The notes below the pieces were generated by a model that saw only the letters and a program-made list of their open reading frames with translations, searched no databases and had not been told where the DNA came from. 12,549 nt of DNA, from IMG/VR virus record IMGVR_UViG_2585427728_000006, positions 1 to 12,549 of that record; one strand, written 5' to 3'. A program made the position numbers and the translations under genes. Positions 1,935 through 12,549 of the stretch are shown here, piece after piece (the first letter of the stretch is position 1; every line of letters starts with the position of its first letter). Origin of the DNA: a virus (taxonomy: Duplodnaviria > Heunggongvirae > Uroviricota > Caudoviricetes).

Positions 1935-2189
1935 TTACTCATCACCTTCTGTTTCGTACTCCACATCAGAAAGCCTGACCTCAAGCTCTAAGGACGTCGT
2001 GAAGCCGCTGTTATTCAGAAAATGTGTCACTTTAGTGATTGTCCAGTCCTGCTCGTCTATGACGCGCTTAAAGCCTGACACTTTAACCGGTGTTTCCGTG
2101 TAAATATCTGCCCGACCAGTAGCCAGGCTGATGGAGAACTCCGCTACACCCCGTTGCAGCTTATCCCACTTCGCCTGAGCGGCACGCAT
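1935..2189 (-). pseudogene. C-terminal fragment of P2 gpD-like tail protein (yegZ-like remnant)
   Basis: 84-aa ORF ending ...TTSLELEVRLSDVEYETEGDE resembles the C-terminus of P2 gpD (about 387 aa in P2). Same frame stays open upstream to about 2312 with no plausible start, so the N-terminal roughly 70 percent of D is missing. Confidence 0.75.
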
Positions 2190-3135
2190 GGCCTGTGCTT
2201 TCGTGGCATATACCGTGGTCAGGGCAAAAACGTTATCAGCCTCACCGGCCAGATGGTATGAGCCACCGGTCAGCTTTACCGGTCTGGCAAAAAGCCTGCG
2301 TGCTGCCGTGCATCACAGCTCACCGATTTACGTCAAACGTAATATTCTGGCCTCGACATTTATCCCGCATCCGTGGCTTTCCCAGCAGGATTTCAGCCGC
2401 TTTGCGCTGGATTTTCTGGTGTTCGGTAATGCGTTTCTGGAAAAGCGTTACAGCACCACCGGTAAGGTCATCAGACTGGAACCCTCACCGGCAAAATATC
2501 CCCGCCGTGGCGTGGAGGAGAATGTTTACTGGTGGGTGCCGTCCTTCAACGAGCCGACACCTTTCGCGCCCGGCTCCGTGTTTCATCTGCTGGAGCCGGA
2601 TATTAATCAGGAGCTGTACGGCATGCCGGAATATCTCAGCGCCCTTAACTCTGCCTGGCTGAATGAGTCAGCCACGCTGTTCCGCCGCAAGTATTACGAA
2701 AACGGCGCACATGCCGGATACATCATGTACGTCACTGATGCCGTGCAGGATCGCAACGATATCGAAATGCTTCGCGAAAACATGGTCAAGTCGAAAGGCC
2801 GCAACAACTTTAAAAATCTGTTTCTCTATGCCCCGCAGGGAAAAGCCGACGGCATTAAAATTATCCCGCTCAGTGAAGTGGCAACGAAGGACGATTTTTT
2901 TAATATCAAAAAAGCCAGCGCCGCTGACCTGCTGGACGCGCACCGCATCCCCTTTCAGTTGATGGGCGGCAAGCCGGAGAACGTCGGGTCGCTGGGTGAT
3001 ATTGAGAAAGTGGCAAAGGTCTTTGTCCGCAATGAGCTTATCCCGTTACAGGACAGGATCCGCGAGATAAACGGCTGGCTCGGTCAGGAGGTCATCCGCT
3101 TTAAAAACTACTCACTGGACACTGACAACGGCTGA
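2188..3135 (+). pseudogene. N-terminally truncated P2-like portal protein gpQ
   Basis: ORF product resembles P2-family portal protein and ends next to cos, as Q does in P2. Frame opens only at 2179 and the first ~40 codons overlap the D fragment on the opposite strand, so the genuine Q part probably begins near 2314 and lacks its N-terminus (P2 Q is about 344 aa). No P gene or late promoter upstream. Confidence 0.75.
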
Positions 3136-3162: not shown

Positions 3163-3304
3163 ACACCCAGTCATCACGCCCTCACACGCTCACCACCGCA
3201 CAAAACAGCCCGCAGACACAGCAACGCCCCGGCGCAAAATCTAAACGCCGCCACGACGCGCTCAGACGCTGAAAAAATAAAATCAGCACCCCCGCCAGCG
3301 CGCA

Positions 3305-3323
3305 GTGCTTTCCCCGCCTCGCC
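3305..3323 (-). other. P2-type cos site (19-nt cohesive-end sequence)
   Basis: GTGCTTTCCCCGCCTCGCC is the reverse complement of GGCGAGGCGGGGAAAGCAC, the recalled P2 cohesive end; adjacent sequence toward Q also resembles the P2 left end. Confidence 0.75.
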
Positions 3324-3653
3324 CGCCCGCTTCATGGGGCGGTTTTGATGCAATACATGAGCATCGTAATGCCATATCGTGACAGGATTATAGAACATGA
3401 AGGTATACTAACTTACACATGCAAAAAAACGCACACTCAGGCATTCTCTTTGGAATACAATATGGTAAAAATATGATCATTTGAAGCTGCATATCCGTGC
3501 AGATTGAAATCAATGATGCTGCCCCTTCGTTAAGACAGCCAGGCCGCAATCTCTTGAGCTCAAGTGGACATCTAAGACAGAAAAACAATTTAAAGGCAAA
3601 GTTTTCGTAATGGTATCTTTGTCACAGCACACGCTAAAAAGGAACTAAACCTC

Positions 3654-4718
3654 ATGAGCACTCAGCAAGTCCTCAACATCCCTACAGCCGTATCGCAAGC
3701 GACCATCGAAAAATGGTTGAAAGGACTGGAACAGACAACGGAATTAGCCTTTTTTCGCCGTGTTGGCGGGCGGCATGGCTTCAATGTTACGAGCCGCTGG
3801 GCAAGTACATTGGATAACTTGAATAAAACTCTGAATGACCCATCGAAGCAAGGTACGCCTGCAAACTTTTCAAATCTCCGTTTGATTACGTTAAAAATAA
3901 TCACTAGCGTAAACCATTATTATTCAATTGATGGTATTAAATCAGGAACCATTAATTTAATACCAAATATAATCAACTACCCTCACCTCGATAAAACATT
4001 TAGCTCAGTATTTCCAATAAAACTTGATGATAATACAGGACTTCCTTCGACTCCTGGGCATTTCATTACTTCCATCGAAAAAATGGGGGATGGTATTGCT
4101 GTAATATATTCCTATATTATTTTAAGAAAAATCCAAGGAAGGAGTAAGCTACGTAGCAATCAATATCCAGAGCAGTACTTCAACACTGTTTTCATCCCTA
4201 ATGATTTAAGCCGTATAGAATATCGGGTTGATAAATCACTAGGTAAAAGAGCGTCTGAAAAAGCGATGGCAGATTTGCGCGCAAAATTTAATGAATTACT
4301 CGTGGAACTTAATATTAAGTTAGCTGTTGAAACTATAAATTTCTACAAAGCAATTTCCAATATTTACCTTGACAAACAATATGGAAGACTTGTTCAGGTT
4401 AATTTCCTTGATCCAAATGGAGATGAGGATGCTGTTCTTCGTTGCAGAACAGACCCCAATTATGATGCCCGTTATCGCGAGGTTGTATCTAAAACTCAGA
4501 ACGGAACACCTCGCTCATTGACCCTTGAAGTTTCTGGCGTTGCAGTGCGATTAGATAGTAAAGTTGCAAACGAAACAATTTCAAATGAAATTGGTTTTGA
4601 ACCCAGCAAAACTGATTGGTCTACAAACAAATTTTGTGGGGATTTTTATTTTACACAAACAGCAGATCATCAGGTGCATTATGGGGTGATAAATGATTTA
4701 CTCACAAGAGCGAAATAA
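3654..4718 (+). CDS. Hypothetical protein, cargo gene 1 of cos-proximal three-gene operon (354 aa, no recognisable family)
   Basis: ATG at 3654 with AAGGA about 10 nt upstream; long ORF in a strongly AT-rich block; first gene of a co-directional tightly packed trio. No Walker A, RT, TIR or Old-like motifs seen. Confidence 0.75.
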   Translation: MSTQQVLNIPTAVSQATIEKWLKGLEQTTELAFFRRVGGRHGFNVTSRWASTLDNLNKTLNDPSKQGTPANFSNLRLITLKIITSVNHYYSIDGIKSGTINLIPNIINYPHLDKTFSSVFPIKLDDNTGLPSTPGHFITSIEKMGDGIAVIYSYIILRKIQGRSKLRSNQYPEQYFNTVFIPNDLSRIEYRVDKSLGKRASEKAMADLRAKFNELLVELNIKLAVETINFYKAISNIYLDKQYGRLVQVNFLDPNGDEDAVLRCRTDPNYDARYREVVSKTQNGTPRSLTLEVSGVAVRLDSKVANETISNEIGFEPSKTDWSTNKFCGDFYFTQTADHQVHYGVINDLLTRAK

Positions 4719-5127
4719 AAAAATGCGCTCATTAGTGTATAAACAAAGAGTACTCCTGGAGAATGCCGGAAGCTCTTCTGTTTTCATAAATAATGATTCT
4801 CACATATATTATACAAATTTACTAGAATATGTAGAGGGTGATCTTGATCGTAATATTTATACAATCCCAGTATTACGAAAAGCCATAAAAACTGACAATT
4901 ATGAACATTTGCTACGAGTTGTTCAATTTTTTAGTAGCAATACCTCTTGTTTATTTAACGTTAAATATTGCTACGAACTAGAAAACATGGAGTTTGAGGA
5001 CATACAAGCTGATGAATATACCAACTATATATTAAACGGAGTTGAACCTGTAACTGCCAATGGTTCTGAAATTGAAGACTTCAATCCAAAATATCTTTCA
5101 TTTTATTGCATAATAAACCTGGATTGA
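4693..5127 (+). CDS. Hypothetical small acidic protein, cargo gene 2 (144 aa; alternative start at 4723 gives 134 aa)
   Basis: ATG at 4693 preceded by GGGGTG; overlaps gene 1 by 26 nt; stop TGA 5125-5127 lies 5 nt before the gene 3 ATG. Asp/Glu-rich, no recognisable motif. Confidence 0.6.
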   Translation: MIYSQERNKKMRSLVYKQRVLLENAGSSSVFINNDSHIYYTNLLEYVEGDLDRNIYTIPVLRKAIKTDNYEHLLRVVQFFSSNTSCLFNVKYCYELENMEFEDIQADEYTNYILNGVEPVTANGSEIEDFNPKYLSFYCIINLD

Positions 5128-5132
5128 CTGTC

Positions 5133-5981
5133 ATGAACAAACAACAAATCACATGTGAGTTAGGCAAAAGGGTTCATTTTGAAGATGAAGCGAGTTTTAT
5201 TGAAACATTATACTCGGATATAGAAGTCATAATAAAACTAATGGAGCAATCTAGTGACAAGTATTATTGTGATGATGAAGATAAACTAAGCCATACAATT
5301 GTAGCCTCTCTTGTACACCTAGGTTACGATGCAACCGAACAAACAAAAAAAAATGGAAGTGTGGACATAACCGTTCGTCCGAAAAATGGAGGATATACAT
5401 GGATTGCTGAAGCAAAAATCGGATACGGGAACCAAAAAATATTCGAGGGGCTACTTCAGTTGCTTACTCGCTATGTTAAAAGAGATAATCATGCAGGCAT
5501 GGTTATCTATTATCAAAAATCAAAGTCATCTTATCATTTCAAACAATGGCTGAAATACATATACAACCATGAGTGGAAGGATTATTGTACAAAGAAAGGG
5601 TCATTAAAAAAAGCGACTCCGCTACTTTCTCATTTAAAAAGTACGGTTTGTCCGAAAGTCAAACAAGGCTGTTGTTATGCTGACATTGATGTCATCCAAC
5701 CTTCGACTGATGGTCTAAAACTTCGCTGCTTCTATATTGACGTGCATCATGACCCAATTGACAGTAGTGGTTTAAAGAATAAGTCAATCGCCTTTGGTCA
5801 AGCCCAAAATAGAATTAGAGATTTATATCACTTATGGAAGACAGGACAGTTCGACGGCAGTATGATAGATGAATTATTTGAAGAAATAAAAATATATCAT
5901 AGCAATGAACTTGACGAAGAATATGAAGATGAAGATGAAGATGAAGATGAAGATGAAGATTCGAATATAAACTCAAAATGA
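5133..5981 (+). CDS. Hypothetical protein with PD-(D/E)xK nuclease-like signature and poly-(Glu-Asp) C-terminal tail, cargo gene 3
   Basis: ATG at 5133 (the ORF-track start at 5106 is TTG). Contains GSVDITV...(14 aa)...WIAEAKIG, i.e. D78 and E93-x-K95, a spacing typical of PD-(D/E)xK cores; C-terminus EYEDEDEDEDEDEDSNINSK. Confidence 0.7.
   Translation: MNKQQITCELGKRVHFEDEASFIETLYSDIEVIIKLMEQSSDKYYCDDEDKLSHTIVASLVHLGYDATEQTKKNGSVDITVRPKNGGYTWIAEAKIGYGNQKIFEGLLQLLTRYVKRDNHAGMVIYYQKSKSSYHFKQWLKYIYNHEWKDYCTKKGSLKKATPLLSHLKSTVCPKVKQGCCYADIDVIQPSTDGLKLRCFYIDVHHDPIDSSGLKNKSIAFGQAQNRIRDLYHLWKTGQFDGSMIDELFEEIKIYHSNELDEEYEDEDEDEDEDEDSNINSK
5925..5960 (+). repeat. Perfect hexanucleotide tandem repeat (GAAGAT)x6 inside gene 3
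   Basis: Six exact tandem copies of GAAGAT, in frame, encoding (Glu-Asp)6. Confidence 0.95.
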
Positions 5982-5994
5982 ACACCAAGAATCA

Positions 5995-6028
5995 CCCCAT
6001 TAAGTTTAGACATCCTAACTTGATGGGG
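5995..6028. terminator. Putative hairpin between convergent cargo gene 3 and A
   Basis: CCCCATTAAG (5995-6004) pairs with CTTGATGGGG (6019-6028) with one G-U position and a 14-nt loop; no strong T-tract on either strand, so function is uncertain. Confidence 0.3.
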
Positions 6029-6116
6029 AATTGACTTTTAAGTCTGTAACCCTAGCCATCAAAAATAGATTCATTTTAAATAAAAATATATCCGTTACGC
6101 CCCAAAAAAAATTGAA

Positions 6117-8387
6117 TTAATTAGGAAAAACACTCCCAGTTGGAATTTTTTTAAATTTATATTTCCTCCCATCGAAACATACTGTCGCACCGCGTGCTAA
6201 TACCTGTGGTTCCCATTGATTCGGCGTAATACCCTCCTGAGCCAACTCGAATCTTATACGTGGCGTCTGTTCCCGTTCAGCTTTTGTCATTCGTCCTGAG
6301 GGCGCTATCTGATAAGGTTTTAATGGCTCACAGCTCTTTTGCTGGCGATTTGGTCGTGGCGCATCGTGTTTTAGTGCGCATCTGAGCCCCGTCACGACTT
6401 CAGGGTCATCCCAGCCGATAACCCCGCGCTCAATCAGATTCAACACCGCTGCTGCTTGCTCAGAAGGTATGGATGTCATAGCAGGATCGCCACCGCTAGT
6501 TAGCTTTCCACAGTTATTGACAGGACTCCGAGGCGCGGCGATGCCGCTTTTTAAAGTCAAAGGCTCAACGACCGGCACTTTCGGAACAATGCGCCAGTCC
6601 GTCGTTCTGGTGATATGAATATGACGCGCGCCGAGATGCGGCGCGTAAATGCCGACCACTCTCTCGACTTCTTCCTCGTACTCGTTAACTTCATCCGACG
6701 GACTACGGGCAACCCTGACAGTCTGACAATCGCGCGGAACATTTGCCCCACCCTGCGCGCTGATATACAACGCAAAATCACCACTGTCTGCGGCAGCGCG
6801 TGCAGCCTCGACGCGTTCGTCAAACTCATCAGCAATGCTGACGCCGCGAGGCAATTTGCGTAGTTCACGGTAAGCCCCCATTGTCGGCAGGCCAACCGTT
6901 TTAAATTGCGGAATGCGCCACGTTGACGCCCATGCGGTAACAGCCGCGGCAGTGTCTTTCAGCGGCCTGCCGGTATCGTTATCGAGCTGACCATCCAGTG
7001 CATAGCCATCGATGTTTTTTGAGATGTATTTCGCGATATATCCCGCAGCACCGCCCCGGTTAAGGTGTTTTGCCTGAAAACGGTTTCGCGCGGCTCCTCT
7101 TTCGTCACCATCCTCTTTGAGCGCATAGCGACGCATGATTTCGATAATCTGGTTACGCTGGCGTGGATTACAAAAAAGCATCATATGCCAGTGCGGCGTT
7201 CCGTCGTGGTGTGGCTCGACGACTCGCAAACCGTAGACCTGTAAATCATTATCCTTGAATGCCGTGCGCATCAGGCTCCAGATGCGGCAGAGATAACGCT
7301 GCGCATCCTTTGGATTAAATGCCTCATCATTCCAGCCGTGATTTAGCTGGACGGTTTTACTTTCGCCTTTTCCGACCTGACGTGTCGGGTGATACTTTGA
7401 CGGCGCGGTCAGCGTGATAAACATCCCCACATCACCCTCTGCGGCGGCGTAACGCTCAATACCGGCGATGGTGTTCATCAGCTCCATCCGGCGAATTTCT
7501 GGATTAGAAATACTGCCCATCACCTTACTGATAAGGTCGATGCGCTCGCCGGTTTCCCTGTTTTCAAGGTCACACGATTTAAGAAATTCCAGATTTGCCT
7601 GGCGGCGCGCACACACATCACGAATGGCATGTTTACTGGCATAAGGAGAACGGTCTTTATTCACCTCCCCGACAGCAATCAGTAACGCCTCATGCCAGCG
7701 CATACGCTGGCCTTTAAGCTGACTAATCCACCACTCATCGTTAAACAGACGGGCAATGGCAGAATATGCCTGCCTCGTGGTCATCTGTCCTTTACGGTAT
7801 TTTTTCCAGTAGAGAGGGGAAATATTGAAAGCACGTGCAGCGCCAGCAACATGACCATACAGATGCGCCTGCGCCTCATCTGTAAACAGCGATTCTTTCT
7901 CGCCATGTGCATCAACCCATGCATCGCAGAGTTCCTCATACATCATGAAAAGCTGCGATGAGATACGGGCGGCAAACTTTTTCAGCTCCTTGTCATTCAT
8001 CCCCGGCAGACGCGCATAATGGTCACGCTCTGCCAGAAACAGCAACGACGCGTCGGTGTTCATTTCATGGCGCTGATTCACGCGCTCAATACGCGGCCAT
8101 AAACGGCGCTGAAAAGTGGATGTGAGGAAATAAAATCCGTGCACCGGGCTTTTATTGCGCCGGATGTAGTCATAGCGTGAAGTAAACAGCGAGCGCAAAA
8201 AGTAAGGCAGGCGATTAATCGTGGATAAAACACCTTGCACCTGACGCATCTCGTCACGTGTAAGGGGTCTTTCGCGCCCGACGGCCTCGCGTGGCGCGTT
8301 CCATGCATAAGCACCGGTAAACGTCTCACCGGTGCCTGCGGCAAATGCTGACGGAGGGACAAAACGCCCGGAGGCTTTAACGGCCAT
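6117..8387 (-). CDS. A: P2-type replication initiation protein gpA (rolling-circle HUH endonuclease)
   Basis: 756 aa from ATG at 8387 (MAVKASGRFVPP...), closely matching recalled P2 gpA, including the HWHMMLF (HUH) and YIAKYISK motifs. The ORF-track start at 8429 is TTG. Confidence 0.9.
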   Translation of the reverse strand: MAVKASGRFVPPSAFAAGTGETFTGAYAWNAPREAVGRERPLTRDEMRQVQGVLSTINRLPYFLRSLFTSRYDYIRRNKSPVHGFYFLTSTFQRRLWPRIERVNQRHEMNTDASLLFLAERDHYARLPGMNDKELKKFAARISSQLFMMYEELCDAWVDAHGEKESLFTDEAQAHLYGHVAGAARAFNISPLYWKKYRKGQMTTRQAYSAIARLFNDEWWISQLKGQRMRWHEALLIAVGEVNKDRSPYASKHAIRDVCARRQANLEFLKSCDLENRETGERIDLISKVMGSISNPEIRRMELMNTIAGIERYAAAEGDVGMFITLTAPSKYHPTRQVGKGESKTVQLNHGWNDEAFNPKDAQRYLCRIWSLMRTAFKDNDLQVYGLRVVEPHHDGTPHWHMMLFCNPRQRNQIIEIMRRYALKEDGDERGAARNRFQAKHLNRGGAAGYIAKYISKNIDGYALDGQLDNDTGRPLKDTAAAVTAWASTWRIPQFKTVGLPTMGAYRELRKLPRGVSIADEFDERVEAARAAADSGDFALYISAQGGANVPRDCQTVRVARSPSDEVNEYEEEVERVVGIYAPHLGARHIHITRTTDWRIVPKVPVVEPLTLKSGIAAPRSPVNNCGKLTSGGDPAMTSIPSEQAAAVLNLIERGVIGWDDPEVVTGLRCALKHDAPRPNRQQKSCEPLKPYQIAPSGRMTKAEREQTPRIRFELAQEGITPNQWEPQVLARGATVCFDGRKYKFKKIPTGSVFPN

Positions 8388-8652
8388 ATGAGCCAAAAGC
8401 CTCTGAACAACGCTTGCTGAGTTGCTCAACCTGCGCGTTTAAATCAGCAAAAGACTTTGCGCTTCCGGTCAGAATATCGTGATGCATCAGGCCGGAAACA
8501 AGCTGGCTTAATTTCGGATAATAACCAACCACCGCCAGCCATTCCTGACCGGCGTTTTTACCGCTTTCCGCTCTCTTTTTCTCGTGGAGAATAAACTGAA
8601 AGCTGTCACTGGTAACGACATAACGTTCGCCAATTTCAATACGAATACTCAT
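8377..8652 (-). CDS. P2 early-operon hypothetical protein (position of P2 orf83)
   Basis: 91-aa ORF; its ATG (8650-8652) overlaps the stop of the upstream gene, and its own stop overlaps the start of A; position between B and A as in P2. Confidence 0.7.
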   Translation of the reverse strand: MSIRIEIGERYVVTSDSFQFILHEKKRAESGKNAGQEWLAVVGYYPKLSQLVSGLMHHDILTGSAKSFADLNAQVEQLSKRCSEAFGSYGR

Positions 8653-10952: not shown

Positions 10953-11966
10953 ATGGCAATCAAAAAACTCGATGATGGTCGATATGAAGTGGACATCCGC
11001 CCTACTGGACGTAACGGAAAACGCATCCGTAGGAAGTTTGATAAGAAAAGCGAAGCTGTCGCTTTCGAAAAATACACGTTGTACAACCACCACAATAAAG
11101 AATGGCTATCAAAACCAACAGACAAACGACGTCTGTCGGAACTGACACAGATCTGGTGGGATTTAAAGGGTAAACACGAAGAGCATGGGAAATCTAATCT
11201 TGGAAAAATTGAAATCTTCACAAAAATAACGAATGACCCATGCGCATTTCAAATCACGAAATCCCTTATCAGCCAGTACTGCGCCACCCGAAGAAGTCAG
11301 GGTATTAAACCTTCGAGTATCAATCGTGATTTAACATGTATTAGCGGCATGTTTACAGCCCTGATTGAAGCGGAGTTATTCTTTGGTGAGCACCCTATCA
11401 GAGGGACAAAGAGGCTTAAGGAGGAAAAACCAGAAACAGGCTATCTCACACAGGAAGAAATTGCCTTACTGCTTGCAGCACTTGACGGCGACAACAAAAA
11501 GATTGCGATTCTTTGCCTGAGTACAGGAGCACGTTGGGGAGAAGCAGCTCGTTTAAAAGCAGAAAATATCATCCATAACCGCGTCACGTTTGTTAAAACG
11601 AAAACAAACAAACCACGCACCGTCCCGATCTCAGAGGCTGTTGCCAAAATGATCGCGGATAACAAACGAGGTTTTTTATTCCCTGATGCTGATTACCCTC
11701 GCTTCAGACGAACAATGAAAGCAATAAAACCGGATTTGCCAACGGGGCAAGCCACACATGCACTAAGGCACAGCTTTGCCACTCATTTCATGATTAATGG
11801 AGGAAGTATTATCACGCTACAACGGATACTAGGTCACACGCGGATTGAGCAAACTATGGTTTACGCTCATTTTGCGCCAGAGTACCTTCAGGACGCCATT
11901 TCTCTTAATCCGCTAAGAGGTGGTACTGAAGCCGAGAGTGTCCACACAGTGTCCACAGTAGAGTAA
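10953..11966 (+). CDS. int: P2-type integrase (tyrosine recombinase)
   Basis: 337 aa, GGAGGG SD upstream; C-terminal catalytic region HALRHSFATHF...LGHTRIEQTMVYAHF with the catalytic Tyr; downstream of C as in P2 and adjacent to the att core. Confidence 0.9.
   Translation: MAIKKLDDGRYEVDIRPTGRNGKRIRRKFDKKSEAVAFEKYTLYNHHNKEWLSKPTDKRRLSELTQIWWDLKGKHEEHGKSNLGKIEIFTKITNDPCAFQITKSLISQYCATRRSQGIKPSSINRDLTCISGMFTALIEAELFFGEHPIRGTKRLKEEKPETGYLTQEEIALLLAALDGDNKKIAILCLSTGARWGEAARLKAENIIHNRVTFVKTKTNKPRTVPISEAVAKMIADNKRGFLFPDADYPRFRRTMKAIKPDLPTGQATHALRHSFATHFMINGGSIITLQRILGHTRIEQTMVYAHFAPEYLQDAISLNPLRGGTEAESVHTVSTVE
11938..11957. repeat. Tandem direct repeats GTGTCCACA x2: putative Int arm-type binding sites
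   Basis: Two exact 9-bp copies 11 bp apart at the 3' end of int, about 90 bp from the att core; a related GTCCACACA occurs in the other arm at 1574-1583. Confidence 0.5.
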
Positions 11967-12231: not shown

Positions 12232-12549
12232 TCACTCTCCACATTTGAATGTCAGACGAGCGACACCATGTAATCCTACACCTTCTGTCTTCAGCTCAAC
12301 TATTTGCATTTTTTTGCCCTGAGTAACACAGAAATGAGTTGCATCATTTTTTACTATATTTTCTGCACCAGATATTCTACCCCTGGCTAAAGAAGCTTCG
12401 GCTTCGGTGTAGTATTGGTTATCGAGTTTACGCTGAATATTACTTTTATATGCAAGACCAAATTTACCGATACTTGTCTCATCATTATGCACAGCACAAC
12501 CAGACATAATAAAAATACTAATTAATGATATAGCAGCTATCTTTTTCAT
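12232..12549 (-). CDS. yegR: Putative lipoprotein YegR
   Basis: Complete 105-aa ORF (start codon is the last 3 nt of the window) with signal peptide and lipobox (IFIMSGC); matches recalled E. coli YegR. Confidence 0.85.
   Translation of the reverse strand: MKKIAAISLISIFIMSGCAVHNDETSIGKFGLAYKSNIQRKLDNQYYTEAEASLARGRISGAENIVKNDATHFCVTQGKKMQIVELKTEGVGLHGVARLTFKCGE

Follow-up and report, generated by a model that had tools for sequence, protein, structure and literature searches.

What does a temperate phage gain from three tightly packed, adenine- and thymine-rich (AT-rich) genes that stand where P2 carries old and tin? The question is raised by a stretch of 12,549 nucleotides (nt) from the IMG/VR virus record IMGVR_UViG_2585427728_000006, hereafter the window, which runs from host yegQ (1-1362) to host yegR (12232-12549) with a P2-like prophage between them. 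A sequence-only reading of the window had proposed that the three genes, here termed genes 1, 2 and 3 or together the trio, form an undescribed anti-phage defence system with gene 3 as the nuclease effector. We lean towards the view that temperate phages and satellites carry the cassette as a self-contained accessory module that moves horizontally, and that it most likely shields the lysogen from other phages. The best reading of the trio is that of a candidate sensor/adaptor/nuclease defence module.

Comparison with P2 by blastn delimits the cassette (Table 1). Window positions 3305-3352 align with P2 cosR, as annotated in P2 record AF063097, and with the adjacent 29 nt. Homology to P2 then stops at 3352 on the cos side and restarts at 6161 within the 3' end of gene A, so the exchanged segment is 3353-6160, in place of P2 orf91-tin-old. 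From 6161 onward gene A is 94% identical to P2 A. As homology ends inside the gene, the 3' end of A appears to have been swapped along with the hotspot cargo; its last ~15 codons (6117-6160) have no P2 homology and orf91 is absent from the window. According to the P2 annotation the order there is A, orf91, tin, old, the old-tin transcript start and cosR, with old-tin convergent with A. The homology edges at 3352 and 6161 flank the cassette and thus place it in the P2 old/tin slot, as the sequence-only reading had it. The other features it noted also held: open reading frame (ORF) calls and the start used by RefSeq give three co-directional ORFs of 354, 144 and 282 amino acids (aa), all convergent with A, with an overlap of 26 nt between genes 1 and 2 and 5 nt between the gene 2 stop and the gene 3 ATG. 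The AT-rich character, previously judged visually, was computed as a guanine plus cytosine (GC) content of 0.360 for the cassette against 0.52-0.54 in the flanks (yegQ 0.543, Q fragment 0.533, A 0.524), and along the sequence GC ranges from 0.31 to 0.41 over 3600-6200 versus 0.50-0.57 on either side. AT-rich loci of this type have been reported to be silenced by H-NS (bioRxiv 10.64898/2026.09.05.749240). Measured from the same cassette edge, the promoter candidate lies ~130 nt inward and the start of the P2 old-tin transcript ~120 nt; as a promoter of the cassette's own, this consensus match is suggestive only. The hairpin downstream of gene 3 has no clean T-run and is a possible bidirectional terminator.

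Gene 3 is the best-defined component. Its full ORF spans 5106-5981, and the ATG at 5133 yields the 282-aa protein annotated in RefSeq. Structure prediction shows a restriction-endonuclease-like alpha/beta core fold, and the protein carries the PD-(D/E)xK catalytic motif with its second-strand acid, third-strand (D/E)xK and helix glutamate. All 50 close and 41 diverse homologues share E49, D78, E93 and K95, together with Q109, R113 and Y114. The triad D78/E93/K95, singled out by the sequence-only reading, is therefore conserved throughout. In structure gene 3 is closest to type II restriction enzymes and McrC, and NucC, Can2 and HamA match as well. Against curated Pfam nuclease families only sub-threshold matches were obtained (PDDEXK_9 for 10 of 50 homologues, best 0.013; Mrr_cat for 2 of 50). 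The length of the protein varies with a hexanucleotide repeat, giving 280 aa in E. coli A23, 282 aa in the window and 286 aa in E. coli ZH177. The (ED)n tail it encodes is missing from distant homologues; it could be a DNA-mimicking, auto-inhibitory tail or merely slippage-prone.

For gene 1 the predicted structure shows the two-domain fold of RdgC, with an extra N-terminal helical region relative to the E. coli protein. E. coli RdgC is a recombination-associated, ring-shaped, DNA-binding dimer. The basic character of gene 1 (pI, isoelectric point, in Table 1) is compatible with DNA binding, and by analogy with RdgC it may form a ring-shaped dimer. Neither window gene 1 nor any of 41 diverse members matched the Pfam RdgC family or any other Pfam family. 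A structure search of BFVD returned weak matches to phage proteins labelled 'exonuclease' or 'recombination-associated protein'. RexA, the DNA-binding half of the lambda Rex exclusion system, is also RdgC-like (PMC11077077). The structural comparison foreseen in the sequence-only reading as a route to remote homology thus gave an RdgC-like fold for gene 1 and a restriction-endonuclease fold for gene 3. Gene 2 encodes a small acidic protein. Its homologues form 12 clusters with G124 as the sole nearly invariant residue, and no Pfam family matched across 46 diverse members. If translation began at 4723 instead, the product would have 134 aa, which is the length of some homologues. The gene always sits between genes 1 and 3.

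In order to follow the trio beyond the window, loci were gathered through gene 3 from species-representative genomes, IMG/VR and contigs encoding specific homologues, and an iterated profile for each gene was run over all 5,893 ORFs of the collected loci. Of 86 loci, 83 hold all three genes with unchanged order and strand. In the remaining three a contig end cuts just upstream of gene 3, so that all 83 informative loci are syntenic. Each profile matches once per locus and no other ORF. The usual spacing between the genes is a short overlap. In distant loci the identity of genes 1 and 2 to the window proteins drops to about 10-30%, and as all three reading frames are kept down to this level in the 83 loci, the ORFs of the cassette are real genes. 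In every one of the 74 unique loci, those in hosts of ~63% GC among them, the trio has a lower GC content than its flanks, the mean difference being 13 points.

The family is rare and widely scattered. Gene 3 was found in 6 of 185,579 species-representative genomes. The same cassette occupies the same chromosomal site in 2 of 5,426 complete E. coli genomes, A23 and ZH177; the P2-like prophage of A23 is intact and that of ZH177 is decayed in a different way from the window. The cassette genes are intact in all three and labelled 'hypothetical protein', and the trio thus survives whole in two otherwise decayed prophages, the window and ZH177. Recurrence between Q/cos and A in other P2-like prophages, raised as a question in the sequence-only reading, was observed in Escherichia (E. 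coli A23), Rahnella and Citrobacter. Outside this slot the trio lies directly after delta in a P4-like satellite of Rouxiella, between the attachment site and the integrase of a Citrobacter lambdoid prophage, in an E. coli island beside a lambdoid integrase, in an integrase/AlpA island adjoining an AspBHI/Mrr restriction gene and in a Pseudoalteromonas chromosomal island. It is also found in Stx1a-converting phages, between the antiterminator Q and stx1A on the opposite strand, and next to the integrase of a 14.8-kilobase (kb) PM2-like (Vinavirales) temperate Vibrio phage. DNA of the Stx1a-phage variant is present in 23 of 5,426 complete E. coli genomes, O145:H28 strains among them. In a search of translated DNA (tblastn) gene 3 found further matches in phage records of Acinetobacter and Moraxella, a result that concerns gene 3 only. 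Megablast of the phage collection with the cassette DNA gave no match, and the phage relatives were found by protein-level search only. P2 and P4 almost never swap defence genes (2026 NAR study); given that the trio occurs in both, its family may be one of the few cargoes they share.

Individual loci add detail to this distribution (L numbers denote collected loci). In Rouxiella badensis (CP114060.1, L015 5895-8798) an Ogr_Delta gene and a DUF927/Toprim primase precede the trio, an arrangement that resembles a P4-like satellite's hotspot. Phage Stx1_499 (LC567825.1, L087 4493-6600) carries a divergent trio of 350, 130 and 221 aa. In Vibrio phage 10N.247.311.62_PE001 (PQ189315.1, L088 1351-3626) the ~2.3-kb trio makes up ~15% of the genome. 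The commonest member of the cluster of the E. coli island variant (L005) is present on 605 contigs, and Salmonella enterica serovar Montevideo is the source of many of these; the many partial proteins deposited in this cluster suggest that assemblies often break inside the locus. The P2-like hotspot of Rahnella ecdela (L003 4264-5996, 8941-9714) holds DUF8093, two small ORFs and DUF4926 upstream of the trio and an FRG-domain gene downstream, and the P2-like slot can stack several cargoes.

How does the trio relate to systems already known? The GpA-GpQ hotspot hosts many defence systems of P2-like phages (PMC9122126; PMC13586616), and the trio fits the definition of P2-hotspot cargo in Rousset 2022, namely a location between cos/Q and A with content that varies between similar phages. 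Like P2 old-tin, it lies between cos and the end of A, is read from the cos side and is convergent with A, and it resembles old-tin in having a candidate promoter region of its own and a putative nuclease-based exclusion function. BLAST and hidden Markov model (HMM) searches found no similarity of the trio to P2 Old, Tin or orf91. Unlike Old and the OLD-family nucleases, the trio has no ATPase or Toprim domain according to Pfam and PADLOC, and unlike old-tin it comprises three genes that combine an RdgC-like protein with a PD-(D/E)xK nuclease. Blank results in Pfam, PADLOC and BLAST/HMM searches agree with the sequence-only reading in that none of the proteins resembles Old, Tin, a reverse transcriptase, a TIR domain or a P-loop ATPase. 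In lambda RexAB the RexB partner is a membrane protein, whereas none of the trio has a hydrophobic segment (maximum 19-residue hydropathy below 1.0 in all three) and its predicted effector is a soluble nuclease. Type II restriction-modification would call for a methyltransferase, for which the three cassette ORFs gave no match. Of type II toxin-antitoxin systems only the arrangement fits, with an acidic 144-aa protein upstream of a putative nuclease.

Other candidates also differ. Rst_3HP, the validated 'hp + hp + hp' system of the P2 hotspot (Rousset 2022), is likewise an unannotated trio, its first protein being nuclease-like. Its proteins of ~340, 360 and 225 aa differ in size and order from those of the window, and identity with it was rejected (BLASTP E >= 0.49, family HMMs blank, no PADLOC match). 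To PDC-S54, a single-gene candidate of PADLOC-DB, gene 3 residues 13-147 align weakly over profile positions 230-369 of 410 (E 2.8e-7), and the same partial match recurs in 16 of 41 diverse gene 3 relatives (best E-value 1.4e-7). PDC-S54 is one longer protein that gene 3 does not match over its full length, and it has no counterpart of genes 1 and 2. PADLOC thus returned no named, validated system and this one candidate in part. Gene 1 has no sequence-level relation to E. coli RdgC and differs from it in being always tied to a nuclease operon. The validated system DS-1 of DefensePredictor includes a YejK/NA37 nucleoid-protein-like DNA binder in an E. coli defence operon, but it has two genes with no nuclease listed, and gene 1 of the trio has no NA37 match. 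Genes 1 and 2 gave nothing significant in Pfam, NCBIfam, PADLOC and PDB sequence searches. Matches to MmgE_PrpD_C, DUF7164, TiaS_TCKD, a type III-E sigma factor and thymidylate synthase were far below cut-offs and not family-wide, and were discarded.

The claim that the system is undescribed did not stand. In the summary of Table S5 of Rousset 2022 (PMC9122126) the trio is no. 145, 'DUF5939 | DpnII-MboI' (n = 14), with proteins identical to those of the window; in the list by genome it is entered as 'hypothetical + hypothetical + hypothetical', and the accessions given there match the RefSeq annotation. The label DUF5939 was not reproduced by HMMER on any member and probably stems from HHpred. 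Genes 2 and 1 are also listed in Table S10 of DefensePredictor (PMC13092281) as 'Predicted novel defence gene', with log-odds of 9.39 and 5.66, both above the authors' strict cut-off of 4. Every protein-cluster member of the trio is named 'hypothetical protein', and a full-text literature search (accessions, PHROG numbers, PDC-S54, RdgC plus defence) returned nothing relevant and no report of protection by the trio. Given its place in both lists, the trio is a catalogued, machine-predicted and unnamed defence candidate. What the sequence-only reading observed was correct and its defence idea reasonable; its novelty was overstated. New here are the findings that gene 1 has an RdgC-like fold, that very distant relatives keep a strict three-gene synteny and that the trio has spread to a PM2-like phage, a P4-like satellite and Stx1 phages.

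Several lines of evidence favour defence. The slot is the position of P2 old/tin, in the same orientation and within a defence hotspot. The trio is modular, mobile over unrelated elements, low in GC and intact in decayed prophages. Gene 3 combines a predicted restriction-endonuclease fold with an invariant catalytic set, gene 1 has a predicted RdgC fold as does RexA, and the DefensePredictor scores exceed the cut-off independently of our analysis. In the mechanism we propose, the cassette would be expressed in the lysogen from its own cos-side promoter, as P2 old-tin is. A dimer of the RdgC-like gene 1 protein may then bind DNA itself, a DNA feature that accompanies infection (an end, a fork or a recombination intermediate, for example) or a phage protein at work on such DNA, and such binding would act as the trigger. 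Gene 2, which appears translationally coupled to both neighbours, may bridge gene 1 to the nuclease or keep the nuclease inactive. Gene 3 would be the effector, a putative Mg-dependent PD-(D/E)xK DNase directed either at phage DNA, as in restriction, or at host DNA, as in abortive infection.

A more specific version, which we hold only tentatively and think rather doubtful, is that the trio represents a new immune family in which an RdgC-like DNA ring or clamp senses a DNA state that marks phage entry or replication (free ends, forks or recombination intermediates), or a phage protein acting on RecA or DNA, and licenses the nuclease through the acidic adaptor. If so, RexA, RdgC and the trio family would form one 'DNA-clamp' sensor class, present on temperate elements of five or more unrelated kinds, Shiga-toxin phages among them.

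A number of observations weigh against the defence reading and its assignment of roles. The likeness of gene 1 to RdgC is in fold only, with almost no invariant residues, and hhalign gave its profile a probability of 0.2% against E. coli RdgC and <1% against lambda RexA, each a weak test with a single-sequence template. The part given to gene 2 was proposed from its size, charge and position only. Since the loci were collected via gene 3, their synteny is silent on gene 1 or gene 2 occurring alone. PADLOC 2.0 gave no match of the trio to any validated system, the trio is absent from the tested-system tables of Rousset 2022 (including Table S2, the cloned systems), and among the matches listed for accessions and peptide strings no trio variant was found in the tested units of DefensePredictor. 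Of the DefensePredictor units that were cloned, only 45% protected (PMC13092281).

Three other explanations draw on the same data. The trio might be a tripartite toxin-antitoxin or addiction module, with gene 3 as a DNase toxin, gene 2 as its antitoxin and gene 1 as regulator or chaperone, which would stabilize the element rather than block phages. The acidic gene 2 (pI 4.7) directly upstream of the nuclease and translationally coupled to it, and the survival of the cassette in two degraded prophages, are what such a module would predict. We nevertheless consider it unlikely: gene 1, the largest gene, is always kept although a two-part toxin-antitoxin has no need of it, and the defence hotspots in which the trio is found belong to five or more kinds of element. 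As many toxin-antitoxin modules are abortive-infection defences, this explanation partly overlaps with the one we prefer. The trio could instead be a constitutive, restriction-like complex, for instance one of type IV character that depends on DNA modification or structure, in which the RdgC-like protein loads the nuclease onto incoming DNA with neither infection sensing nor cell death. Little weight falls on this possibility either. The closest structures to gene 3 (type II restriction enzymes and McrC), the lack of a methyltransferase in the cassette and the one island that couples the trio with an AspBHI/Mrr type IV enzyme agree with it, but the trio has no NTPase motor and no recognizable modification-reading domain, and a PD-(D/E)xK fold by itself fits restriction and abortive-infection effectors alike, as the matches to NucC, Can2 and HamA illustrate.

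It is very unlikely, in our judgement, that the trio serves the DNA metabolism or the lysogeny control of the phage itself, with a nuclease and an RdgC-like modulator of RecA or recombination adjusting induction, recombination or replication instead of excluding competitors. In favour, RdgC is an inhibitor of RecA functions and RexA shifts the balance of the lambda switch (PMC11077077), and the weak BFVD matches of gene 1 carry exonuclease or recombination labels. The trio is, however, dispensable cargo, as it occurs at this locus in 2 of 5,426 E. coli genomes and is absent from most P2-like phages; it stands outside the replication and recombination operons, convergent with A, and it is carried by satellites and islands with no lytic cycle of their own.

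If the trio is protective, as the defence reading holds, it would constitute an unnamed defence family whose RdgC-fold partner has no NTPase, in contrast to the many defence operons in which an accessory NTPase accompanies a predicted nuclease. After lambda RexA it would be a second, tractable case of an RdgC-like protein in phage exclusion, RexA being one whose mechanism has been unsettled for decades. Because the family is found on medically relevant elements (Stx1a phages, Salmonella Montevideo contigs), it could shape which phages superinfect pathogens. Its value is tempered by the hundreds of comparable candidates and by its presence in two published candidate lists.

Table 1 Coordinates of the cassette, its genes and signals, and the neighbouring prophage features in the window.
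Feature	Position	Strand	Description
Swapped AT-rich cassette	3353-6160	plus	Upstream region, three genes and last ~44 nt of gene A
Gene 1	3654-4718	plus	354 aa, basic, pI 9.1, predicted RdgC-like fold; proposed DNA-binding sensor or scaffold
Gene 2	4693-5127	plus	144 aa, acidic, pI 4.7; proposed adaptor or inhibitor of the nuclease
Gene 3	5133-5981	plus	282 aa; predicted nuclease domain ~1-165, conserved C-terminal domain P208-x-D210-x-S212, acidic tail
(GAAGAT)7 hexanucleotide repeat	5919-5960	plus	Found with TRF; encodes the (ED)n acidic tail of gene 3
Sigma-70-like promoter candidate TTGGAA-16-TATGAT	3450-3477	plus	Consensus scan 9/12; ~175 nt upstream of gene 1
Hairpin between convergent gene 3 and gene A	5995-6028	not applicable	RNA fold -20.5 kcal/mol, z = -3.6, 0/200 shuffles as stable
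P2-type cos site	3305-3323	minus	Exact 19-nt match, reverse complement of GGCGAGGCGGGGAAAGCAC; left edge of the variable slot
Gene A, P2 replication endonuclease	6117-8429	minus	ORF; named 'replication endonuclease' in A23; right flank of the slot
C-terminal fragment of portal gene Q	2188-3135		Prophage remnant
Fragment of tail gene D	1935-2189	minus	Abuts the Q fragment
ogr	1635-1916	minus	Prophage gene
int	10953-11966		Prophage gene; small early genes, cox and C lie between gene A and int

The prophage around the cassette is a deletion remnant in which ~20 kb of late genes are gone and the cassette and early region are intact. Collinearity of the window with the intact prophage of A23 begins only at 2250, which indicates that all late genes between Q and D have been deleted. 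Two ORFs of 66 and 74 aa (3388-3588; 3174-3398, minus strand) lie across cos and the upstream region of the cassette; they are unannotated in A23 and ZH177 and are probably not genes. In the ZH177 remnant (L002 1-1562) SIR2-family and PIN-domain genes adjoin the tail-fibre genes, a second cargo site of that P2-like element.

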